Positions 4,695 to 51,159 of a stretch of 64,000 nt of DNA are shown here, in pieces. Numbering within the stretch: position 1 is the stretch's first letter; each line of letters opens with the position of its first letter. The notes beneath the pieces are model-generated. The model was not told the DNA's origin. It was given only the letters and a program-made list of their open reading frames with translations, and did not search any database. The DNA lies in the IMG/VR virus record IMGVR_UViG_3300028832_000125. One strand, written 5' to 3'. The DNA is from an uncultured virus (IMG/VR IMGVR_UViG_3300028832_000125). Its lineage: Duplodnaviria > Heunggongvirae > Uroviricota > Caudoviricetes. The position numbers were made by a program, and so were the translations under genes.

Positions 4695-4934
4695 ATGGCA
4701 AATAAAAAATTGGAAAATCCGCAAAAAATGACCCTCAAGGGCTATTATCAGAATCTTCCAGATGCCACGCATCCGAAGACTGAGTTTGTGAATCGCATCA
4801 TGGTCGAGTGCGGAGTTTCGTTCACCACTGCCAGAAACTGGGTGGTAGGGATAACGAAGCCGTTCAAGCCTGAGCACGTCCAGAAGTTGTCGGAAATGAC
4901 AGGTATTCCCGCTGATGAGTTATGGAGCAATTAG
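4695..4934 (+). CDS. Cro-like HTH protein
   Basis: Short HTH (CGVSFTTARNW...LSEMTGIPADELW) divergent from the repressor. Confidence 0.8.
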   Translation: MANKKLENPQKMTLKGYYQNLPDATHPKTEFVNRIMVECGVSFTTARNWVVGITKPFKPEHVQKLSEMTGIPADELWSN

Positions 4935-5473
4935 AGTTCTACATCTACGAGCAGGAGTTATGGTGCAGGCGAGCCGATGGCCGTAACGAGGTGGTGACTG
5001 AACATGACACTGAGTTGGTTCAGCCCCTTCTGGAACGGATTAGGGAGCAGTACCCAGAGGCGTACAAGGCTCTTGAAAAGGAATACCAGAAGGTTTCCAT
5101 CTACGTTCCGCGCTACCAGTTCCTCATCGTTCGGAGGTTCTGCAAGTGCAACTTCGGCAGACTTGACACCACGAAGATGGACGTTGACGGGTCTGGAGCA
5201 TTCAACTTCGAGAAGGTTGAGTGTCCGCTTAGAGGTGAGTGCAGGTATGAGGGAAAAATCTGCTTCCCTAAGTTCAACACAAGGTTATCAGACGCGGAAC
5301 TGCGTGTGATGAGGCTTGTCTATGACGGAGTTAGCAAGGATGACATCGCCGAAAGGCTGTATCTCTCGCCTAACACCGTAAAGAACCACATCAAGTCGGT
5401 GTACTGCAAACTTGGCATCCATGAGAAATCCGAGTTTATCCAGTATGCCAACAGGAATCATCTTTTTAGTTAA
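4922..5473 (+). CDS. LuxR-family HTH regulator
   Basis: C-terminal LSDAELRVMRL...IAERLYLSPNTVKNHIKSVYCKLG. Confidence 0.85.
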   Translation: MEQLEFYIYEQELWCRRADGRNEVVTEHDTELVQPLLERIREQYPEAYKALEKEYQKVSIYVPRYQFLIVRRFCKCNFGRLDTTKMDVDGSGAFNFEKVECPLRGECRYEGKICFPKFNTRLSDAELRVMRLVYDGVSKDDIAERLYLSPNTVKNHIKSVYCKLGIHEKSEFIQYANRNHLFS

Positions 5474-5506
5474 ATTATATGTTTCACTTATTAAACACTA
5501 AGAGCA

Positions 5507-6457
5507 ATGGGATTGATTAAGAAAAGTAACGAAATCGCTATTCAGCGAAATGTGAAGATGATGGTTTACGGCCAGGCAGGTATGGGTAAGACTACCCTCG
5601 CCCTCTCTGCGCCCAACCCTCTGTTGCTTGACTTCGACAACGGAGTTAAGCGAGTGAACAACGCGCATCTGGGAGATAACGTTGGTATCGTCCAGATTTC
5701 CAACTGGCAGGAGGTCGTGACTCTGCTCACCACTGAGGCGGCAGAACTTGCGCCCTTCGGAACTATCGTTGTTGATACCATCGGTAAGATGATGGACTTC
5801 ATCATCACATACCGTTGCGGTGGTCGCAATCCTCGCATGCAGGACTGGGGAACCATCAACAGTGATTTCAAGTGGTTTGTGGGTGCTCTCTCCAATCTGG
5901 GAAAGCACATCATCTTCGTGGCACACAGGGACACCAGAAAGGAGGGTGATGATACCGTCTTCGTTCCGGCCCTGCGTGAGAAGTCGTACAACTCCATCGT
6001 GACGGAGTTAGACCTTCTGGGCTATCTGGAAATGAAGAATGAGAACGGACTGCAGAAGCGTTCCATCACATTCGACCCCACCTCCCGCAATGACGGTAAG
6101 AACACCTGTCAACTGCCTGGAGTGATGTTCATCCAGAACATTCTCGACCAGAACGGACAGCCTACTGGAGCCAATGACTTCATCGAGAAGCAAATCATCG
6201 CCAAGTACCAGGGTATGATAGCAGTCAAGGAAAAGGCTGCACAGGATTACCAGAAGGCACTTGAAGAGATTAAGATGGGAGTGGAGCAGATTACCGATGC
6301 ACAGGGAGCCAACCACTTCATCGCTCATATCAAGGATTATGCGAACCTCGGTAACAGCATCATCATCTTCGCAAGAGACCTGTTCAGTAAGAAGGCCAAG
6401 GCCCTCAACTTGAAGTATAACAAGGAGTCAAAGCAGTACGAGGATGCAGCAGCTTAA
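5507..6457 (+). CDS. AAA ATPase, Sak4-like recombination protein
   Basis: Walker A GQAGMGKT, Walker B IVVD; located in recombination module. Confidence 0.8.
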   Translation: MGLIKKSNEIAIQRNVKMMVYGQAGMGKTTLALSAPNPLLLDFDNGVKRVNNAHLGDNVGIVQISNWQEVVTLLTTEAAELAPFGTIVVDTIGKMMDFIITYRCGGRNPRMQDWGTINSDFKWFVGALSNLGKHIIFVAHRDTRKEGDDTVFVPALREKSYNSIVTELDLLGYLEMKNENGLQKRSITFDPTSRNDGKNTCQLPGVMFIQNILDQNGQPTGANDFIEKQIIAKYQGMIAVKEKAAQDYQKALEEIKMGVEQITDAQGANHFIAHIKDYANLGNSIIIFARDLFSKKAKALNLKYNKESKQYEDAAA

Positions 6458-10312: not shown

Positions 10313-10401
10313 ATGAGACAGGCCGTTGGTGGCACATTCATACGATTAATAAAAACTAAGGCTCACCAACGGCCATCTTTTTCAAGAAAGCACTAAGAGC
10401 A

Positions 10402-11580
10402 ATGAAATATCAATTAAGAGACTATCAGCAGAACGCCAGTAATGCAGCACTGAGGGCATTCAACGCTACGGGTGCAAGGAACGGCTTGCTCATCCTGCCT
10501 ACGGGTGCAGGAAAGAGCCTCGTTATTGCAGACATAGCATCCAAGTTGAACGGCCCGCTGTTGATCCTGCAACCGTCAAAGGAGATTCTGGAACAGAACT
10601 TCGCCAAGTTGCAGAGTTACGGCTGTTGGGACGCTTCCATCTATTCCGCTTCCGTTGGTCGCAAAGACATAAACAGAATCACCTTTGCAACCATCGGCAG
10701 CGTCATGAACCACATGGATGAGTTCATGCACTTCAAGAATGTCATGATAGATGAGTGTCACGGAGTCAACAGCAAGGCAGGGCAGTACAAGGAGTTTATC
10801 GAGGCTACTGAGCGCAGGGTGATAGGTCTTACCGCCACTCCCTACAGACTGGTATCATACAGGGGTGGCAGTATGTTGAAGTTCCTCACCAGAACGAAAC
10901 CGCGCATATTCTCAGATGTCCTGTACTACTGCCAGATTTCCGATTTACTCGGCAAGGGCTATCTGGCAAACCTCAGATACTTCGACTGTACCAAACTCGA
11001 CATGAGCAGGGTGAAGTCAAACTCCACTGGTGCGGACTTCGATGACAAGTCACTCAAAGAAGAGTACAAGCGTATCGGCTTCGGTGACCAGTTGTCATCT
11101 ACTACCATGAGGGTGTTGAAGCCGAAGAGCGGCATACCCAGAAAGGGCGTGTTGGTGTTCACCCGGTTCATCGAAGAGGCCGACACTCTGGCGATGAGGC
11201 TTAGGTCTGTAGGCATCAGAGCGGCCATCGTCACGGGTGATACTCCTAAGAGAGAGCGTGAGGATATTCTGGAAGACTTCAAGGCCGGACGTATAAAGGT
11301 TGTTGCCAATGTCGGGACGCTGACTACAGGCTTCGACTATCCAGAATTAGATACGGTGATACTCGGCAGGCCCACGAAGTCACTGGCCCTGTACTACCAG
11401 ATGGTAGGCCGTGCCATCCGTCCGTGCAAGGGCAAGGATGGTTGGGTAATAGACCTCGGAGGGACATACAAGGTCTTCGGTAACGTGGCCAACCTCAAAA
11501 TAGGTCTGGAACCACTCAGCACCGCAAAGTGGTGCATTTCATCAAACGGAAAGCAATTAACAAACGTAATGTTCAGATAA
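10402..11580 (+). CDS. superfamily 2 DEAD/DEAH helicase
   Basis: PTGAGKS, DECH, TAT and QMVGRAIR motifs. Confidence 0.92.
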   Translation: MKYQLRDYQQNASNAALRAFNATGARNGLLILPTGAGKSLVIADIASKLNGPLLILQPSKEILEQNFAKLQSYGCWDASIYSASVGRKDINRITFATIGSVMNHMDEFMHFKNVMIDECHGVNSKAGQYKEFIEATERRVIGLTATPYRLVSYRGGSMLKFLTRTKPRIFSDVLYYCQISDLLGKGYLANLRYFDCTKLDMSRVKSNSTGADFDDKSLKEEYKRIGFGDQLSSTTMRVLKPKSGIPRKGVLVFTRFIEEADTLAMRLRSVGIRAAIVTGDTPKREREDILEDFKAGRIKVVANVGTLTTGFDYPELDTVILGRPTKSLALYYQMVGRAIRPCKGKDGWVIDLGGTYKVFGNVANLKIGLEPLSTAKWCISSNGKQLTNVMFR

Positions 11581-13875: not shown

Positions 13876-14577
13876 ATGTCAGACGGATGGGTTAAGATAC
13901 ATCGGAAATTCCTTGATTGGGAATGGTACGACAAATCGGAAATGGTGCACCTGTTTCTCCATTTGTTGCTGAACGCCTGCACCTCAGACAGGCGATGGCA
14001 AGGCATACCTATCAGAAGAGGTCAGGTAATCACTGGCCGCAGGAAAATCAGCGAGGCTACTGGCCTCAGCGAACAGAAGATAAGAACCTGCATGCAAAGG
14101 TTGATTGAATCTGGCGAAATTGAGGTGGAACCAACCAACAAGTTTTCTATAGTAACTATCTGTAAATACGAAAGTTACCAAGACTGCCAAAATGAAAGTA
14201 ACCAACAAACAACCAATGAGGAACCAACGGCAAGCCCTACGGAGCCCATAAAGCCTAAGAAGACCAAAGAGGAAATAAAGGCAGAGACTGACAGACGCAT
14301 GAAGGAGTTCTATAACTCCCTTATCCCATACGTTCAGACTTACGGCAAGGAAATGGTGAGGGAGTTCTATGACTACTGGAGTGAGGTGAATAAGTCCGGC
14401 AGTAAGATGAAGTGGGAGCAGGAGCCTACATGGGTACTGGATAAGAGACTGGCCAGATGGTCAAGACACGATAAAAAGTATAAGAGCAATGATACAGACG
14501 GTAGCAGAAATTCTACAGCAGAAACAAGAGCACAGGACGCAGCAAGCGTCATTGCCAGCCTTGCGGCAGAAGAGTAA
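13876..14577 (+). CDS. phage replication initiator (N-terminal wHTH)
   Basis: GWVKIHRKFLDWEWY...RGQVITGRRKIS; C-terminal FYDYWSE domain. Confidence 0.8.
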   Translation: MSDGWVKIHRKFLDWEWYDKSEMVHLFLHLLLNACTSDRRWQGIPIRRGQVITGRRKISEATGLSEQKIRTCMQRLIESGEIEVEPTNKFSIVTICKYESYQDCQNESNQQTTNEEPTASPTEPIKPKKTKEEIKAETDRRMKEFYNSLIPYVQTYGKEMVREFYDYWSEVNKSGSKMKWEQEPTWVLDKRLARWSRHDKKYKSNDTDGSRNSTAETRAQDAASVIASLAAEE

Positions 14578-18934: not shown

Positions 18935-19185
18935 TATGGGACAGACCAAGCGTAAGAACGTCACCAGAATCCGGCTCACGGGCATCTTCACCGACTGGCA
19001 GGGTAAGATGAGGGAGCGGTGGATGAATGAGACCCTGCTACTCAGAACTGCCAGGAAGGTAGGCGATGAGGAAAATGTCAATAACTACGTCCTGGGCCTG
19101 CTGAACAGAGCGCAAGACACAGGGCAAATCACCTTCGAGAAAGTCAAGTAAGTTACAGAGCAATGAAACCAAAAGAAATTAGAAT

Positions 19186-19620
19186 ATGTTTTCGAGTAAT
19201 CAAGTATTAAGGATTTCTGGCAGTTTTAGCCAGTTGGAGCACGCCCTTCAATTTGCTTTGGATTATTCCGGCAACACCAAGAATATGACAAAGGCAGAGC
19301 GAGACAGGGGGTGTAAACTTCTGTTCCAGATAACGGAAGACGGGAAGTATTGTATTGGTTGGGGGTTTGGTGGCGTTCCAGAAGGATGGAATGAGTACCA
19401 GTTTGACTTTGAGACCCCAATCGTGTCACAGATAATCGTTCAGCACATCAAGAAACAGCCAAGGCCAGAAAGTGAATATGACTGGTCTGACGGCGGCACC
19501 TCAGACGGATTCTTGATGAGTTCCATCCGTGACTGTTCTCTGGATGAAAGAAAAGGCATCAAATCGCCTTTCTTCTGTATTGTGGTATTTGAGCCGTTCT
19601 GTTGTTTTTATGCCAAATGA
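19186..19620 (+). CDS. hypothetical protein
   Basis: ORF. Confidence 0.7.
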   Translation: MFSSNQVLRISGSFSQLEHALQFALDYSGNTKNMTKAERDRGCKLLFQITEDGKYCIGWGFGGVPEGWNEYQFDFETPIVSQIIVQHIKKQPRPESEYDWSDGGTSDGFLMSSIRDCSLDERKGIKSPFFCIVVFEPFCCFYAK

Positions 19621-32435: not shown

Positions 32436-33940
32436 TTGACCGCAAGAAAGGACGTAAGAAACTGAAAAGGTGGCGTGCCGACTGGAATCTGTTTGCCAAG
32501 GAGGTGTTGGGTGCCAAACTCGATAAGGAGCAGCAGGCAATACTATCATCCATACAGAAGAATCCGATGACGGCAGTAGCCAGTGGGACGGCAAGGGGCA
32601 AGGATTTCGTTGCAGCCTGTGCCGCCATGTGTTTCATGTACCTTACGCCCAGATTCAAAGACGGCAACCTCATTTCCAATACTAAGATAGCGATGACGGC
32701 TCCAACTGGCCGACAGGTGAAGGATATTATGATTCCAGAGGTGGCCCGCCAGTTCCGTAACGCAAAGGTTCTGCCAGGACGCTTGCTGTCAAACGGCATC
32801 CGTACCCGCTATGACGAATGGTACTTGACGGGCTTCAAGTCTTCCAATGACAATACTGAGGCGTGGTCTGGATTCCATGCCGTCAACACTATGTTTATCG
32901 TTACTGAGGCTTCTGGTATCACTGAGAGTACGTTTAATGCGATTGAGGGTAACTTGCAGGGTAACTCTCGGCTGCTGATAGTGTTTAACCCAAACATCAC
33001 AACGGGGTACGCGGCCAAGGCCATGAAGTCACCGCGATTCAAGAAATTCAGACTGAACTCCCTTAATGCCGAGAACGTGGTCAGCAAGCGCAACGTAATC
33101 CCCGGACAGGTCGATTATGAGTGGGTGAAGGATAAGGTTGAGAACTGGGCGCATCCCATACCCATAGAAGAGTTTGACGAAGGTGAGGGTGATTTCCACT
33201 GGGAGGGAAAGACGTACAGGCCAAACGACCTGTTCCGTGTCAAGGTTCTGGGAATGTTCCCGAAAGCCTCAGAGGATATGCTTATCCCGTATGAGTGGAT
33301 AGAGTTGGCTAACCAGAGGTGGGAAGAGTTGCATGAGAATAACTTTGTCAGTAAGAAGACACCCAGAGTCGGTGTTGATGTCGCAGGCATGGGACGTGAT
33401 AACAGCGTACTGCTTCCGAGGTACGGCAACTGGGTTCCAGAGATAAAGGTACACCAGTCCGGCGGCAAGGCCGACCACATGCACGTAGTCGGCATGACCG
33501 TGCCGTATCTCGACAAGGGCGGCAAGGCGTTCATTGATACCATCGGAGAGGGTGCGGGTGTTTACTCGCGTCTCGAGGAACTGGAGTATGATAACGCTTT
33601 CTCCTGCAAGTACTCAGAGGGTGCAAAGAACCTGCATGACATCACGGAGCAGTATTCCTTCGCCAATATGAGGGCGTATCTGTTCTGGTGTGTCCGTGAC
33701 TGGCTCAATCCAAAGAACGGCTATAATGCTGCACTGCCTCCAGATGACGGACTCGCTGAGGAAGCCACTGAGATACACTGGAAGTTTCAGAGTGACGGCA
33801 GGATAATCATAGAGCCGAAGGAAGAGATTAAGAAGAGGCTGAAACGTTCGCCGGACAAATTCGACGCTCTGGCAAACACGTTCTACCCGCATGACTATAG
33901 TGAGTCTGATGATGAAGACCTCGAAAAAGATTTGGTTTAG
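32432..33940 (+). CDS. terL: terminase large subunit
   Basis: SGTARGKD Walker A variant, IVTEAS Walker B, GVDVAGMG nuclease, SPDKFDAL. Confidence 0.9.
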   Translation: MIDRKKGRKKLKRWRADWNLFAKEVLGAKLDKEQQAILSSIQKNPMTAVASGTARGKDFVAACAAMCFMYLTPRFKDGNLISNTKIAMTAPTGRQVKDIMIPEVARQFRNAKVLPGRLLSNGIRTRYDEWYLTGFKSSNDNTEAWSGFHAVNTMFIVTEASGITESTFNAIEGNLQGNSRLLIVFNPNITTGYAAKAMKSPRFKKFRLNSLNAENVVSKRNVIPGQVDYEWVKDKVENWAHPIPIEEFDEGEGDFHWEGKTYRPNDLFRVKVLGMFPKASEDMLIPYEWIELANQRWEELHENNFVSKKTPRVGVDVAGMGRDNSVLLPRYGNWVPEIKVHQSGGKADHMHVVGMTVPYLDKGGKAFIDTIGEGAGVYSRLEELEYDNAFSCKYSEGAKNLHDITEQYSFANMRAYLFWCVRDWLNPKNGYNAALPPDDGLAEEATEIHWKFQSDGRIIIEPKEEIKKRLKRSPDKFDALANTFYPHDYSESDDEDLEKDLV

Positions 33941-33995
33941 AGTGGAAAATCCGGCAATTTTTTGTATTATCAAAAATATTTTGTAATTTTGCACC

Positions 33996-34068
33996 GAAAT
34001 CGTTTCTAATTTTGACGATTTCATTGCTCTTAGTGCATCGGTTCGTGAAGAATAGATGCACCTTTTTT
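33996..34068 (+). ncRNA. candidate antisense small RNA carrying a CAUUGCUCUU seed
   Basis: TTTG-19nt-TAATTTTG promoter; hairpin GAAATCGT/ACGATTTC; seed at 34022-34031; terminator GTGCATC/GATGCAC plus T6. Confidence 0.7.
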
Positions 34069-34073
34069 GTATT

Positions 34074-34179
34074 CGTTAAATAGAGTTGGTCAGGGAAAAA
34101 TAAAGGGTTTTCCGTTTTGATAATTCAGAAAATTTTTGTATCTTTGCAGTACAGAAATCAATTAAATAGAAGAGCAATG
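34074..34179 (+). promoter_or_regulatory. class A promoter cassette 3
   Basis: Repeated block. Confidence 0.8.
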
Positions 34180-36922: not shown

Positions 36923-36924
36923 GG

Positions 36925-37366
36925 CTGTGCGCCGGGGTTCGAGCCTCCGGCACCAACAACGCGTGAGAGTTATCCGCATTTTCGGTAACACCTTTGAAGT
37001 GGCACTCTCGAAACATCAGAAACGGACAAAAACAGGCACTTGAAAGCGATGTGCGACCAGACGGCCACTGCCTGGGGGCAAGGAAAAGTCAGTACAAACC
37101 AGTCGAAGCCATCGAGAGACTTACAAAGCGATGGAGGTTGTATGCAACCACCGAGAGCGTAACATTGGGCGATAAAGGAAAGCGCAGGGTGTGAAGTTCC
37201 ACCCACCGAAAGGACTGCACCTGTCGCATGGCGGCATTTGCTGACACCTCAACAAGGTAGCCGTTTGCGGACGTATGAACCTGCACGCAGAGAGCACGCG
37301 TAATCATCCTCTGGAGCATACCAGTAATCAAAGCATGGGACAGCGGTAAAAGTCGCTGTTTCCCCC
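36925..37366 (+). ncRNA. candidate large structured non-coding RNA
   Basis: About 440 nt without a convincing ORF; T-loop-like GGTTCGAG hairpin, several stems and a terminal hairpin. Confidence 0.4.
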
Positions 37367-37370
37367 ATTG

Positions 37371-37476
37371 GGTTAAAAAGAGTTGGTTGGCCAAAAATAG
37401 AGTTCAATCGGTTTTGATGATTCAGAAATTTTTTGTAACTTTGCAGTATAGAAATTTAATAAGAGTAAGAGCAATG
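37371..37476 (+). promoter_or_regulatory. class A promoter cassette 5
   Basis: Repeated block; shares CCCATTGGGTTAAAAAGAGTTGGT with cassette 1. Confidence 0.8.
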
Positions 37477-44965: not shown

Positions 44966-45460
44966 ATGGAAGTATATTTGGGTGATGACCTTGGCAATAT
45001 GACTGAGAGGGATTGCCAGACAGTGAAGAAACTGATGGATGGCAAGAGTTTCTATCGGTTTGACGTGAGTTGGTCTAACTATGCAGGAAACTGCCAGTTG
45101 ATAGTGAAGACGTGCTATAAGGGTGCAAACCCTCTGGAGGTAAAGAAGATGTTCCTGTCTGTCTATTTCACTGAGGCGGCGAATGTTCTGAGGCGGTTTG
45201 ATATTCTGAGGCGGTTCTGTGTGAGCAAGTTGGCGAACCCAGAAGCCGTGGCCGCTTTCGAGGCAGAGCATCGGTATATGTTCTATCAGCAGGACGCAGT
45301 GACAGTGAAGCAGCTTAATTTCCCTCCGCATATCATGTCCTACACCCAGACGGAGCAGGGCTATCTCCTGTCATCCATTGACAAGAGTTTCTTCAAGGAA
45401 CTTAAAAGGCAGTTGTATGCAAAGGGTATAGACGTATTGGTTTACAAGTTAAATGGTTGA
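44966..45460 (+). CDS. hypothetical protein
   Basis: ORF. Confidence 0.65.
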   Translation: MEVYLGDDLGNMTERDCQTVKKLMDGKSFYRFDVSWSNYAGNCQLIVKTCYKGANPLEVKKMFLSVYFTEAANVLRRFDILRRFCVSKLANPEAVAAFEAEHRYMFYQQDAVTVKQLNFPPHIMSYTQTEQGYLLSSIDKSFFKELKRQLYAKGIDVLVYKLNG

Positions 45461-45463
45461 GTT

Positions 45464-45718
45464 ATGAACGGGTTTACAAGCAAAGAAGACAAGGCCGTAT
45501 ATGAGTGGCTTAGTGAGAACGCAGGCGAGAAGGTGGCCGACACCCTCTACAACTATCTGAGCATCATGGCAAAGCAGGACATCTATTCCGGCCTGGTCGA
45601 TGACGGCCTCATCGATGATGAGGATGACAGTGATGATGAGGATGACGATGATGAAGAGTCGTATGCGCTGCAGCATGAGATTGCGGAGGCTCCGGCTGAC
45701 TGTAGAATCGGGTTCTGA
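45464..45718 (+). CDS. highly acidic small protein
   Basis: D/E run. Confidence 0.6.
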   Translation: MNGFTSKEDKAVYEWLSENAGEKVADTLYNYLSIMAKQDIYSGLVDDGLIDDEDDSDDEDDDDEESYALQHEIAEAPADCRIGF

Positions 45719-45721
45719 GGC

Positions 45722-45988
45722 ATGGTACAGGTAGCACAGTTTGACTATTACGGTCACAGGTACACGGTCTTTCAGCGTGACACCCATCCCAGATACAAGG
45801 TTGTCCGCGAGAGCATGAAGACTGGAAGGAGTGAAGAGCGTGACACCGATGATGAGTCAGCCGTTGACAACTGCGATAACAGCGAGATAGTCAAGGTGTT
45901 GGAAGACAAGAATGACATGCCTTTTCTGAGGTCTCTACTGGAGAAAAGGAGGTTGAGCCGGAAGTCCATCAGAAAGTTATTTGAATAG
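45722..45988 (+). CDS. hypothetical protein
   Basis: Packed ORF. Confidence 0.6.
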   Translation: MVQVAQFDYYGHRYTVFQRDTHPRYKVVRESMKTGRSEERDTDDESAVDNCDNSEIVKVLEDKNDMPFLRSLLEKRRLSRKSIRKLFE

Positions 45989-46068
45989 CAAATAAGTTCG
46001 TTTTTGTTGCCGTGAGAGGGAATTTGGCACTGAAAAGTGTCATTTTCCCTCAATTTTTGCAAAATTTT

Positions 46069-46110
46069 CGCTAAAATTATTTGTTATTCAAATAGTTTTA
46101 ACTAACTTTG
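46069..46110 (+). promoter_or_regulatory. class B promoter (head operon)
   Basis: TATTTGTTATTCAAATA at 46078; TAACTTTG at 46103. Confidence 0.75.
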
Positions 46111-46114
46111 TGCC

Positions 46115-46230
46115 CGAAAGCGTGTGAAGTTGCACGTTACAGAACTGTTCGGATTCAAACATCATTGCTCTTACGATGTGGTTCTGATGATGGATTGCTC
46201 TGTTTGCCACAAGCACGCAGAGCAATTTTT
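46115..46230 (+). ncRNA. structured leader/sRNA with the seed in a loop and a terminator-like hairpin
   Basis: ACATC-attgctcttac-GATGT stem-loop; ATTGCTCTG/CAGAGCAAT stem plus T run. Confidence 0.6.
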
Positions 46231-46255
46231 CAAAACCAAATTAAAAAGTAAAACA

Positions 46256-47008
46256 ATGAACAGACATTTTAGAAGAGTTCTGGAAGTGCTGAAAACGAGA
46301 AAGGAGATTAAGGCGCTCGGGTTCAGCCGTAAGGAGTTAAAGGGTATCGCCGCCAAAGTTGCCGATAAACTCGAACTCAAAGATGATGCCACTGATGAGG
46401 AAGTCACGGAAGCCATCGATGACGCTGTTGATTCCATCGTTCCGTTCCTCGGTTTCACCCAGACGGTGGCAGACCGCCGACTCCAAGAGTACAAGAATGC
46501 TCATCCTGTCGATGACGATGATGACGATGACGATGACCCCGATGACGAGCCAGACGGCAATGAGGGTGGTAAGAGTCCATCGAAGAAAGGCAAGGTGAAC
46601 AAGAAAGCCAACAAGGATGAAGACCCGATGGCCGCTGCCCTGGCCAAGGCTCTCACTCCGTTTACTGAGACCGTACAGGGTCTGCAGAGACAGATTGCAG
46701 AGTTGAAGGATGGCAAGACTGCTGACAGCAGACTCGCCCGCCTAAAGGAAAAGGTAAAGGACACTGGCAAGTTCGGTGAGCGCACGTTGAAGGCTTTCGC
46801 CCGTATGTCGTTCAAGTCCGATGAGGAATTTGAGGACTACCTTGATGAGGTTGATGAGGAACTGGAGGCAGAGAACCAGGAACGTAAAGACAAAGGTCTG
46901 GAAACTCTCGGAAAGCCTGCCGCCGCTGTCCCCGGCAAACCATCTGGGAATGACGAAGACGGTGAAGTGATGTCGGATGATGAGGTCAAGGCTCTGGCCC
47001 ATGGCTAA
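46256..47008 (+). CDS. capsid scaffolding protein
   Basis: Acidic/coiled protein upstream of the capsid genes. Confidence 0.65.
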   Translation: MNRHFRRVLEVLKTRKEIKALGFSRKELKGIAAKVADKLELKDDATDEEVTEAIDDAVDSIVPFLGFTQTVADRRLQEYKNAHPVDDDDDDDDDPDDEPDGNEGGKSPSKKGKVNKKANKDEDPMAAALAKALTPFTETVQGLQRQIAELKDGKTADSRLARLKEKVKDTGKFGERTLKAFARMSFKSDEEFEDYLDEVDEELEAENQERKDKGLETLGKPAAAVPGKPSGNDEDGEVMSDDEVKALAHG

Positions 47009-47045
47009 GTCACCCTAAGTTAAACCCCAAAAAATCCAAAGTAAA

Positions 47046-47456
47046 ATGGGAGCAAAAGCAAATCTCGTAAATGACCCCGAGACCATCCTGTCCGGCAATG
47101 ACTCTGTTGTCATCCGCCAGTACAACGGTGGTATCACTGGTGGCCGTACTCTCGATATGACTGGATTTGAAGGCCCCATCAAGAGCGGACACCTCGTTAT
47201 CCGTGTGCTTGATGAAGACAACGTGAACTACACGTACAAGCCCATGCCCGTCAGAGGAGAGAACTATGGAAGCCTGCCCGCAAACCACGAGTATGCAGGT
47301 GTGGTTGTTGCATCCAAGCCCAATGACTACCCCTTGGTAGGCATCATGGATGATGGCCGCGTGAACGATGAGGCTATGCCTTACCAGTTCGCAGACTCTA
47401 CTCAGCGTGCCGCTGTCAAGGCTGCACTGCCGAACCTCATTTTTGAACACGATTAA
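47046..47456 (+). CDS. head decoration-like protein
   Basis: 136 aa between scaffold and capsid. Confidence 0.55.
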   Translation: MGAKANLVNDPETILSGNDSVVIRQYNGGITGGRTLDMTGFEGPIKSGHLVIRVLDEDNVNYTYKPMPVRGENYGSLPANHEYAGVVVASKPNDYPLVGIMDDGRVNDEAMPYQFADSTQRAAVKAALPNLIFEHD

Positions 47457-47470
47457 AACCGTTGAAGATT

Positions 47471-49054
47471 ATGAAGAAATCGCTTTTTATTGAGTTTATC
47501 AGTGGCATCTGGCCCAAACTGGCCCTTTATGTGAAGGAAAAGGTTGACCCGAAGGAGCGCACCTACCTGCACAAGACCATGTTGCGTGAGGTCTATTCCG
47601 CTGACCAGAAGTGGGAGGGCACCAGTGCCAAGACCACGTATGTTGCAGCCGATATGGTTGCTATGGATTCTACCCTGCCTATTAAGAAGCGTGGTTCAAT
47701 CGCCACCTCGAACGGCAAACTGCCGAAGGTAGGTATGAAGAAGATTCTCCGTGAGACCGACATCAATACCATCAATATTATGAAGGCTCACTATACCACT
47801 GCCACCACCGATGAGGCTAAGAAGGCCGAGAAGGCCCGTATCATCCAGAACCTCACCAATGATGGCGTGGCCTGCTCTGTAGGTATTGACGAAAAGAATG
47901 AGGCTAATTTCCTCACGGGTCTCTGTGAGGGTGTTGTGCTTGTCGAGGATGAGGATAACGCTGGTACTGGCCTCCGTGTCAACTACGGCTATCTGGAAGA
48001 GAACACCTTCGGTACTATTAAGAAGGGCGAACTCTCAAAGGAGGACTTCGAGAACGTCAATGACAAGGCTAATACCGATGGCAATACCATCGTGAAGTGT
48101 CTGATGTCTAAGAAGAAGTTCGACCAGATGCGCCGTCTGCGTTGGGCACAGGAACTGGTTGCCGACTTCGAGGGTAAGATTTACGATGATGATGACAAGT
48201 TGAAGACACCGTCCAAGAAAGCCATGATGGAGGCATTCGAGGATGAGTTCGGATATGAGATTGAAATCATCAACCGTAGCGTTATCTTCGAGAAGAACGG
48301 CAAGCAGAAGTCCGTCAAGCCTTGGAACGATGCCCGTATTGTGTTCATCTGCAATACTATCGTCGGTTCGCTCGTCTGGGGTACTCTGGCTGAGGCTACC
48401 AACCCCGTTGAGGGTGTGAAGTACGCCGTGGTCGATAAGTACAAACTTATCTCCAAGTACTCTAAGAACGACCCGCTGCAGGAGTTCACTTCCGGCCAGG
48501 CACTCGTTCTGCCCGTCATCGAGGACGTTGACCAGATTTACGTTATCGACTGCGATGAGGAGAAATCCGCTGCCGTTGACACTGACGCTGAGACCGCCGA
48601 CACCTATGACACCTACGTTACCATCAACGGTAAGAAGTATGTCAAGTCTGACGTTATCAGCGGCTTGAAAGGCCTCGGTGTTGACATCAAGACTGGTGCC
48701 ACCGATGCACAGGTCATCGCTGCCGTGAACGCTCTGAGCGATAAGGATGAGAAGAAGCTGCTGAAAGGCTGCATCTACTTCCCTGTCGTAACGCCCGATG
48801 AACTGAACTTCGCTAAGACTGCTGATAGCACTGGTAAGACCGTCAAGGTTACTACCAATGATACGGCTAACCTCGCCACCGCTACGGCTACCACCACCGA
48901 TGCATGGATTACGCCTACCATCTCTGAGGGAGTTGTGACCGTCAAGGTTGCTGCCAACAGTGAGGACAGCGCACCTGCTCGTACTGGTACTGTGACCGTG
49001 ACTGTCGGTGAGAAGACCGCTACCATCACTGTCAAGCAGGCCGCTAACGCCTAA
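47471..49054 (+). CDS. major capsid protein with C-terminal BACON/Ig-like domain
   Basis: Position and size; C-terminal W.T...VTVKVAAN....RTGTVTV...ITVKQ. Confidence 0.75.
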   Translation: MKKSLFIEFISGIWPKLALYVKEKVDPKERTYLHKTMLREVYSADQKWEGTSAKTTYVAADMVAMDSTLPIKKRGSIATSNGKLPKVGMKKILRETDINTINIMKAHYTTATTDEAKKAEKARIIQNLTNDGVACSVGIDEKNEANFLTGLCEGVVLVEDEDNAGTGLRVNYGYLEENTFGTIKKGELSKEDFENVNDKANTDGNTIVKCLMSKKKFDQMRRLRWAQELVADFEGKIYDDDDKLKTPSKKAMMEAFEDEFGYEIEIINRSVIFEKNGKQKSVKPWNDARIVFICNTIVGSLVWGTLAEATNPVEGVKYAVVDKYKLISKYSKNDPLQEFTSGQALVLPVIEDVDQIYVIDCDEEKSAAVDTDAETADTYDTYVTINGKKYVKSDVISGLKGLGVDIKTGATDAQVIAAVNALSDKDEKKLLKGCIYFPVVTPDELNFAKTADSTGKTVKVTTNDTANLATATATTTDAWITPTISEGVVTVKVAANSEDSAPARTGTVTVTVGEKTATITVKQAANA

Positions 49055-49061
49055 ACTCTGA

Positions 49062-49397
49062 ATGGCAATGAAGACAATCAGACAAGCCCTCATTGATGAA
49101 GTCCACTACCCCATACCAGAGGGTTTCGTGGATAACAAACTCATCGAGCGTGAACTGGAAGGCTCCGACAATTACACCTTCGAGGTGTCGAAGTCAAGCC
49201 AGTGGAAAGGTGCTCTGGCTGATTGTCTCTACTCTCTGCTGCAGGCCGTGAGCGTGTCCGAGTCGGATAAGAGCGTAGGCACTCTGACTGACAAGGATAA
49301 GGAACGGCTGTTAGTCCGCATTAACTCTCTCTATAAGGCCATCGGTGAAGACCCCGTGAATCTCGGTCAGCCGATGGTCTATATCGAAAACTGTTGA
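49062..49397 (+). CDS. head-tail adaptor
   Basis: Position and size. Confidence 0.55.
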   Translation: MAMKTIRQALIDEVHYPIPEGFVDNKLIERELEGSDNYTFEVSKSSQWKGALADCLYSLLQAVSVSESDKSVGTLTDKDKERLLVRINSLYKAIGEDPVNLGQPMVYIENC

Positions 49398-49399
49398 GT

Positions 49400-49741
49400 A
49401 TGGCTGTATTGAGTTTCGCACCGCATACGCTCAGTTACCTACAGGTGACAGGCGGGCATGATGACCCAGAGACAGGCGATTACATCAAGGGTACGGAGGC
49501 GTGGATTGAAGACTACTGCAAGTGCGACATGGTGCCTGCAGGCAAAGCCAACGAAATCACGACTCCAGACGGTCAGGTGGAAACATACTCGTACACCATC
49601 TATAACATGCCAAAGAACAGCCGGGAGTTCAAGTACGGCGAGACAGTCCGTATCAAGATGTTCGGCAACTCTGAGGACGTGAGGGAGTTTACTGTCAAGG
49701 GCTTTCACAGATACCAGAAGCAGTGTAAGATGTGGGTGTGA
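49400..49741 (+). CDS. head closure protein
   Basis: Position and size. Confidence 0.55.
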   Translation: MAVLSFAPHTLSYLQVTGGHDDPETGDYIKGTEAWIEDYCKCDMVPAGKANEITTPDGQVETYSYTIYNMPKNSREFKYGETVRIKMFGNSEDVREFTVKGFHRYQKQCKMWV

Positions 49742-51086: not shown

Positions 51087-51159
51087 TCTCGGTTAACTCA
51101 GTTGGCAGAGTGCCGCTTATCATAAGCGGAAGTCACGGGTTCGAGTCCCGTACCGAGAG
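51087..51159 (+). tRNA. tRNA-like gene with central UCA in a non-canonical anticodon loop
   Basis: TCTCGGT/ACCGAGA acceptor, ACTC/GAGT D arm, CCGCT-TATCATA-AGCGG, ACGGG-TTCGAGT-CCCGT. Confidence 0.75.

Follow-up and report, generated by a model that had tools for sequence, protein, structure and literature searches.

A conserved, attenuator-like leader RNA before the head operon of a probable Bacteroidales phage exposes a mirror of the phage's own start-site tag

The C4 RNAs of phages P1 and P7 and the CI RNA of P4 are structured phage RNAs that pair, through short loops, with repeated sites in ribosome-binding regions. In lambda, the late promoter PR' yields a short terminated RNA, 6S, and is the seat of antitermination by Q. 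Listeria SreA and SreB and Sinorhizobium rnTrpL are trans-acting RNAs derived from riboswitches or attenuators, and in the RegA/RegB systems of T4 a single factor recognises a short sequence shared by many phage initiation regions, which results in a class-wide shut-off. The gut and rumen Bacteroidales infected by the phage family considered here initiate translation without Shine-Dalgarno pairing and, to our knowledge, the timing of gene expression in their phages is largely uncharted. The c4 antisense RNA is treated in a recent review (PMC12197685), and the T4 RegA translational repressor and RegB nuclease in another (PMC3014915); the trans-acting small RNAs (sRNAs) GibS and FopS of Bacteroides thetaiotaomicron are reported to bind translation initiation regions (PMC7366714, PMC11697453). 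The element described here is the leader of the head operon in a 64,000-nt stretch of DNA from an uncultured virus (IMG/VR record IMGVR_UViG_3300028832_000125), the whole of which is called the window. The leader is predicted to fold into three hairpins, P1, P2 and P3; the apex of P2 carries a short seed complementary to a tag present at the start codons of other genes of the phage, P3 resembles an intrinsic terminator, and the same seed is found in a companion sRNA gene at 34.0 kb.

The likeness to C4 and CI lies in an exposed sequence complementary to repeated start-region sites of phage mRNA and in a transcript that can run on. The differences concern the targets (about 18 start sites over 44 kb here, two sites in one immunity operon there), the 3' end (from a terminator here, from processing there) and the immunity role, which belongs to C4 and CI; cmscan of 45950-46300 and 33930-34130, with E up to 10, gave no C4 match. 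As with lambda PR', transcription from a late promoter would run through a short structured leader and would have to pass a terminator to reach the head and tail genes, but the present leader has an antisense seed and a palindromic operator, suggesting control at initiation, and no Q family was found among 59 proteins (Pfam) and 40 (PHROGs), smaller open reading frames (ORFs) and the tail region lying outside the scan. Like SreA/SreB and rnTrpL, it would be a terminated 5' operon leader doubling as a base-pairing sRNA; unlike them, it is a phage element with no evident ligand or leader peptide, and its targets share a start-site tag. GibS and FopS come from the same host order and likewise combine a promoter of their own and an intrinsic terminator with a seed exposed for pairing across start codons without Shine-Dalgarno sequence; the leader differs from them in being phage-encoded, in lying inside an operon leader and in being aimed at the phage's own genes, the tags being near background outside prophages. 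The features of such Bacteroides-type sRNAs can all be read in the leader, namely a putative TAnnTTTG box, a predicted terminator (P3) and a candidate seed (the P2 apex). As for RegA and RegB, these are proteins, whereas the recogniser here would be an RNA. No description of the leader element was found in the literature searched, and a term search of the 2025 phage-sRNA review gave 0 mentions of Bacteroid- (PMC12197685).

The first question is whether the leader is a conserved RNA structure. An initial annotation of the window, made from its letters, had placed a promoter about 140 nt before the ATG of the scaffold gene, and this was borne out: the -7 box TAACTTTG (46103-46110, on the + strand, as are the other leader elements, the hairpin closing the upstream operon, the scaffold gene and the companion sRNA), which would belong to the Bacteroides promoter consensus TAnnTTTG, lies 145 nt before that ATG, whose position is corrected to 46256-46258. 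The leader transcript would start near 46113-46118. In the related leaders read, a TAnnTTTG box occurs 5-8 nt upstream of P1. P1 itself (46120-46137) is a 5' hairpin, GCGUGU-GAAGUU-GCACGU. P2 (46140-46186) is a long-range stem, CAGAACUG/UGGUUCUG, that encloses a variable apex; the outer stem originally described, CAGAAC (46140-46145) with GTTCTG (46181-46186), is present and kept in relatives. An inner stem, ACATC (46159-46163) with GATGT (46175-46179), had also been proposed: it does exist in the sequence, but it is outside the minimum-energy fold (-5.8 kcal/mol versus -8.5 for P2) and is not kept in relatives. P3 (46192-46230) is the hairpin plus T-run already noticed, ATTGCTCTG (46194-46202) pairing with CAGAGCAAT (46218-46226) ahead of five T (46226-46230). 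It folds at -22.6 kcal/mol (z -6.4), and the whole leader at -39.9 kcal/mol (z -3.8). As a GC-rich hairpin with a U-run, situated between the promoter and the first gene, P3 has the features expected of an intrinsic terminator.

A class-specific leader pattern gave 106 further matches, of which 80 were fetched; by our own count, 52 were of the scaffold type and the rest were chance matches in coding sequence. Twenty-five distinct scaffold-type leaders were aligned (26 when L323, found later, is added). The alignment leaves out L167, where the record diverges inside P3, and L220, L259, L291 and L292, whose only differences concern the length of the T-run or sequence beyond the leader's 3' side. 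With RNAalifold, the 25 leaders share 6 pairs in P1, 7 in P2 and 8 in P3, formed in 100%, 96% and 100% of the alignment cells respectively, and 12 of these 21 pairs show compensatory changes (2, 5 and 5). Overall, 98.7% of the 525 cells are paired, against 24-54% in slid controls, and 0 of 500 shuffles did as well; the structure was taken from the same alignment on which it was scored, which favours it somewhat. At least five T are found within the 8 bases after the P3 hairpin in 23 of the 25 leaders. The covariation across relatives that the initial annotation had called for is thus present, and its view of the leader as a structured RNA with a promoter and a terminator hairpin holds beyond the window. 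Members of the leader family were seen in some 50 viral contigs and also, as parts of prophages, in Prevotella strains that have been cultured. It constitutes an RNA family without Rfam counterpart: over the whole window, the sole Rfam match above gathering threshold is a tRNA (51087-51159), the leader and the 34-kb sRNA being unmatched.

The anti-start-site motif was found where it had been placed (CATTGCTCTTAC, 46163-46174). Its core, UCAUUGCUC, lies within CAUUGCUCUUAC (46162-46174) in the P2 apex and is the exact complement of GTAAGAGCAATG; the 12-mer is exactly complementary to two tags and has one mismatch to ten more. The core CATTGCTC is present in the P2 apex of 18 of the 25 leaders (19 of 26 with L323), where 11 different tetramers follow it; a T precedes it in 14 of these 18 leaders, which matches the A at +4 of most tags. 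The conserved part of this core is CAUUGCUC and its flanks vary, the full 12-mer of the window recurring in four leaders (L215, L223, L229 and L206). No conserved partner for CATTGCTC within the aligned leaders was seen by eye. The motif is predicted to be unpaired with a mean probability of 0.73 in the window, and the values for the core-keeping leaders span 0.26 to 0.99. Duplexes of the P2 apex with the 18 tag-bearing start sites range from -15 to -22 kcal/mol, whereas 392 other ATG sites average -9.6. Two further observations were set aside: L038-type leaders have a CATTGCT in their P3 loop, which is treated as a chance occurrence, being one substitution from the relatives' loop, and a joint loss of seed and U-run concerns one lineage (L178/L213), which is too weak to count.

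The tag, the 8-mer AGAGCAAT, has 23 copies in the window for 2.78 expected, and 0 of 100 shuffles reached 23. Of the 23, twenty read on the + strand, and in 18 cases a G follows to give AGAGCAATG, in which the ATG is a start codon. Sixteen of these 18 open ORFs of 86-392 codons. The other two, at 409-420 and 19157-19207, begin mini-ORFs of only 2 and 15 codons, and the latter overlaps the start of ORF 19186; these may be upstream ORFs or decoy sites. The initial annotation had the early genes as those to be silenced, which proves too narrow, tags being also found on small genes between the terminase and head genes. Reverse-strand (anti-tag) copies are only three, at 34023, 46164 and 46194, so that two-thirds of those in 64 kb are in the head-operon leader. 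In family records, AGAGCA on the gene strand is the top 6-mer before ATG in G001 (24), G002 (10) and G005 (15) and ties for first in G003 (7), and GAGCA is the top 5-mer in G008 (10). The 10-mer AAGAGCAATG is concentrated in one region, a prophage, in three of four host genomes (20 of 25 copies in G013, 14 of 26 in G012 and 12 of 26 in G011); outside the prophage regions of the four genomes, it is about as frequent as the control. The tag thus belongs to the phages, and the idea of a host-wide start context was rejected. Pairing of the tag with 16S rRNA was rejected also: TTGCTC, GAGCAA and ATTGCT are absent from the rRNA contigs of two Prevotella hosts, a check that covered the 16S and its flanks and the 23S only in part. 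The other classes of P1-bearing leaders (G009, G010) show no enriched start tag.

The companion sRNA (33994-34068) has a promoter of class A; its 5' hairpin is followed by a free seed, UUUCAUUGCUCUUAG, and by a GC-rich terminator with U6. It folds at -24.0 kcal/mol (z -5.2) with the seed unpaired. A homologue is present in seven of the eight fetched family records (G001, G002, G003, G005, G006, G007 and G008) and absent from G004, a record that is 66% complete. Among 15 aligned sequences, 8 of them found by a seed-containing pattern, the seed is unchanged and both hairpins covary, with 6 of 10 predicted pairs compensatory; the 5' hairpin is handled poorly by this alignment. The longest complementarities are with the helicase start (10393-10411; 19 contiguous nt, -31 kcal/mol) and the Sak4 start (5498-5511; 14 contiguous nt, -30 kcal/mol), and these two starts are probably the primary targets of the sRNA. 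The class A promoter, TTTTGTAAYTTTGCA, has 8 matches in the window and is the type used by the sRNA and most tag genes. The leader is the only anti-tag copy placed under the other type, the operator-bearing 'class B' late promoter.

That promoter has a palindromic operator, ATTTGTTATTCAAAT (46079-46093), which overlaps its -33 TTTG. The exact 15-mer occurs four times in the window (13721, 29211, 38812 and 46079), each time followed by a TAnnTTTG box, and the corresponding operons are one starting at 13876, one that extends from 29268 to the terminase, and those of the portal and of the head genes. Its ATTTG-N5-CAAAT form is kept in the leaders of relatives. Such a palindrome points to control of initiation by a dimeric DNA-binding protein, for which a GerE/sigma-region-4-like protein (4922-5470) is a candidate. 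Just 3' of the stop of ORF 45722-45988, the preceding operon ends in a compound hairpin with T-run (46016-46058), GAGGGAA/TTCCCTC around TGGCACT/AGTGTCA and then AATTTTT (-24.1 kcal/mol, z -5.4), and equivalent hairpins precede the leaders of relatives. With the upstream operon closed by a terminator, head transcription should begin at the class B promoter and cross P3. At the operator-type promoter of 13721, a leader of about 125 nt also has a terminator-like hairpin (GCCCTAT...ATAGGGC plus T5) before the ATG at 13876; this is possibly another attenuator.

We read these features, with a little less than even confidence, as those of a late leader that attenuates and yields a short product bearing an anti-start-site seed, a possible second, late antisense RNA; this RNA might plausibly act in trans. 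The operator-controlled late promoter would start a head-operon RNA that folds into the three hairpins, P2 exposing at its apex UCAUUGCUC, the mirror of GAGCAAUGA, which is the start-site tag of about 18 phage genes. Part of the polymerases would terminate at P3, giving a free RNA of some 115 nt with the same seed as the 34.0-kb sRNA; once late transcription is on, this RNA would cover the start codons of tag-bearing mRNAs, and the polymerases reading through P3 would make the head mRNA. The transcript start, termination at P3, the release and stability of the short RNA and its effect on translation are all predictions. The broader proposal of an RNA regulon spanning the whole phage, with the leader as its late arm, where a 9-15 nt seed carried by an early-type sRNA and by a terminated late leader covers the tag of about 18 genes, is possible but doubtful. 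The leader unites an operator-controlled late promoter, a 5' hairpin module of unrelated phages' late mRNAs and an exposed mirror of the tag. Action in trans would give a simple coupling of late transcription to a class-wide translational shut-off, and within a regulon capsid transcription would automatically silence those replication, recombination and accessory genes that bear the tag, which, in phages whose hosts lack Shine-Dalgarno pairing, would do with an RNA what RegA does in T4; were there no action in trans, the leader would still be a clean model of attenuation and leader recognition in Bacteroidales.

Several results weigh against an attenuating leader with an antisense product. The seed is lost or altered in 7 of the 25 leaders: CATTGC is deleted in L224 (G005), CATT is lost in L178 and L213, the core is mutated in L200 and L279 (CAGTGCTC) and in L249, and it is absent from P2 in L038 (G008). 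The seed is therefore dispensable in some lineages, and G005 and G008, in spite of their altered leaders, still keep the tags and the 34-kb sRNA. In four of the leaders that retain the core (L284, L289, L212 and L159) the motif is mostly paired, with unpaired probabilities of 0.26-0.36. The leader seed may also be redundant, since at none of the 20 + strand tag sites does RNAduplex give the 34-kb seed a weaker duplex than the leader seed; the initial claim that the leader copy best fits targets continuing ATGAT stands as regards contiguity (13 nt at 409 and 14483 versus 12 for the 34-kb RNA) and fails as regards duplex energy. Many relatives have a tag-like scaffold start (AAGCAATGAA, or TAAGAGTAATGAA in L289), which fits a role in cis as well. 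P1 is found on leaders without terminators too and therefore says nothing about attenuation. Lastly, four RNA runs were examined as contigs over 45000-49500 (three bovine metatranscriptomes, in small shares, and one other study): these contigs cover fragments of 46253-49424 and none covers 46057-46207, but as they carry neither ends nor strand the runs are uninformative.

An unlikely alternative, though one to be taken seriously, is a leader acting purely in cis, with P1 and the P2 apex binding an elongation factor of phage or host, in the manner of nut, put or LoaP/UpxY, so that P3 and later terminators along the long head-tail operon are passed; the likeness of UGCUCUUA to boxA would then be functional and complementarity to the tag incidental. 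A conserved terminator between the sole visible promoter and the head genes speaks for this model, and the upper part of P1 is invariant across unrelated head modules (between terminase and portal in G009, before the portal ATG in G006 and G004). The resemblance of UGCUCUUA to the boxA of lambda and rrn was counted in its favour too; P1, a conserved 6-bp hairpin with a GAAGNU loop, would then have the part of boxB. However, the conserved part of the motif is CAUUGCUC and not the U-rich half that resembles boxA, and the variants CATTGCTCACTC, CATTGCTCAAAC and CATTGCTCAGAA lose that resemblance and keep the anti-tag core. The rrn leader of the host Prevotella sp. KH2C16 has GTTCTTTGAAA as its likely boxA. 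Because the host boxA differs and the conserved core is the anti-tag half, the U-rich part being variable, classification of the leader as a nut-type site is not supported. The 59 window proteins scanned with Pfam and the 40 with PHROGs, a set short of every ORF, include no NusG, KOW or Q-type family; a LoaP/UpxY-type NGN-KOW protein is thus not seen among the 59, and a host factor is possible.

P1 is also found 8-25 nt before start codons with no terminator following, which again speaks against its being an antitermination signal and led us to reject the notion that it is tied to terminators. The P1 pattern is present in more than 110 viral contigs, of which 80 were fetched. Elsewhere than on scaffold-type leaders, P1-like hairpins have the same upper part, GUGUGAAGNUGCAC, on lower stems that covary. 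They lie 8-14 nt before the portal ATG in G006 (L140:8019-8038) and G004 (L024:16602-16621), before another late gene in G009 (L149:1325-1344), and between the terminase and portal genes of the unrelated head module of G009. In genome contigs the pattern gave 63 matches for about 69 expected by chance (our own arithmetic), and only the Bacteroidales matches with promoter context were used. By its distribution, P1 belongs to late leaders in general, whether or not a terminator follows, and probably serves for protein recognition or stabilisation, elongation control being a further possibility. Two observations may be added. The sequence AAAGGAC recurs shortly after P1 in several unrelated leaders. 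Within the window, a GC-rich stretch of about 550 nt without long ORF (36923-37470), between a MutS-domain-I gene and a class A promoter, contains at 37187-37204 a P1-like GGGTG-TGAAGTT-CCACCC, then GAAAGGAC, with no Rfam match; the stretch may be a larger non-coding RNA.

It is improbable that the P2 apex instead controls translation in cis, pairing with a tag-like scaffold start 70-90 nt downstream so as to throttle scaffold synthesis, the partner having moved in the window to the 3' arm of P3. Twelve of the 25 leaders, in the alignment read by eye, do have a scaffold start of the form (A)AGCAATGA(A), and that of L289, TAAGAGTAATGAA, can make 13 pairs with its own seed if one G-U is allowed; pairing would be intramolecular, so 7-9 pairs could suffice. 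Yet the motif is kept in the window and in its three nearest relatives, where the scaffold start is not tag-like (AAAACAATGAAC, AGAACATGAAC and TAGTAATGAAA), no covariation was seen by eye between the base 5' of the motif and scaffold positions +4/+5, and a fold in which the apex pairs with the 3' arm of P3 loses 15.6 kcal/mol relative to the one with the terminator.

The latter figure bears equally on the switch proposed in the initial annotation, according to which the 3' arm of the terminator is itself the tag and pairs with the P2 seed or with the 34-kb sRNA, thereby opening the terminator and coupling capsid expression to the antisense system; we consider this highly improbable. Its sequence basis is correct: the exact 8-mer AGAGCAAT is present at 46219-46226, hence the third anti-tag copy (46194-46201) in the 5' arm, which is unlikely by chance, and a duplex of the sRNA with the 3' arm is worth -16.7 kcal/mol. 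However, the tag is in the P3 stem of the window only, that is, in 1 of 26 distinct leaders and 1 of the 4 of its own clade; the other 25, including the three closest, have stems of the GGTCTGC/GCAGACC type, and only a few changes separate the ancestral arm, GCAGACCAT, from GCAGAGCAAT. A fold forced to pair the 3' arm with the loop seed has -24.3 kcal/mol versus -39.9 for the leader. The 5' arm has the advantage of lying next to the 3' arm and of being transcribed before the rest of the hairpin, and its 9-12 pairs (-22.6 kcal/mol) exceed the 8 that each competitor can offer. As the seed and the 5' arm are the same sequence, the seed cannot sequester the latter and can only compete for the 3' arm. 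No conserved alternative pairing of the kind expected for a mutually exclusive antiterminator was seen in the aligned leaders, the sole candidate (seed with 3' arm) being specific to the window. With a window-only tag and so unfavourable an energy, neither the alternative pairing nor antitermination of capsid expression by it is supported, and we regard the tag in P3 as a change particular to this lineage, to which no role is assigned.

That the leader codes for 44 extra residues of scaffold protein from GTG 46124, a possibility the initial annotation had named as fatal to its own proposal, can be dismissed as next to nil: the frame is open down to the ATG in the window, but it is not conserved and the leader is therefore non-coding, an in-frame stop closing it between P1 and the ATG in 20 of the 25 leaders (at -24 and -15 in the nearest relatives, L229 and L206), leader lengths being spread over all three phases, the GTG lying inside the P1 stem and the protein alignment starting at MN in all six sequences.

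With the attenuating leader as the preferred reading, the genes around it remain to be described. The head operon opens with a scaffold-like protein of 250 aa (46256-47008; phrog_5824, 2e-30; phrog_29, 2e-29), whose MN... start lines up with those of relatives, and continues with the major head protein (47462-49054, from PHROGs). Other PHROGs matches in the window are a Sak4-like annealing protein (5507), a helicase (10402), the terminase (32432), the portal (38870), a head-morphogenesis protein (41382) and the tape measure (51972). Long ORFs are nearly all on the + strand; by direct reading, promoters are of the TAnnTTTG type and start codons have no Shine-Dalgarno sequence. Deposited phages provided no near match to the window at the DNA level, the capsid protein search gave distant matches only, the scaffold-protein search of genome contigs gave no relative, and metagenome scans gave 0 and 1 match. 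The relatives are uncultured viral contigs (one flagged as provirus) and prophages in Prevotella, Bacteroidaceae and Parabacteroides genomes, Prevotella sp. KH2C16 and P. vespertina A2879 being among the carriers, and the window is best explained as a temperate Bacteroidales siphophage. A tRNA gene (52.5 bits, 51087-51159) lies within the tail-gene region. In the bovine metatranscriptome run X1, contigs match six head-gene pieces within 47047-49424 over 151-298 nt with 0-3 differences; they carry no weight as evidence of transcription and hint at a rumen habitat.

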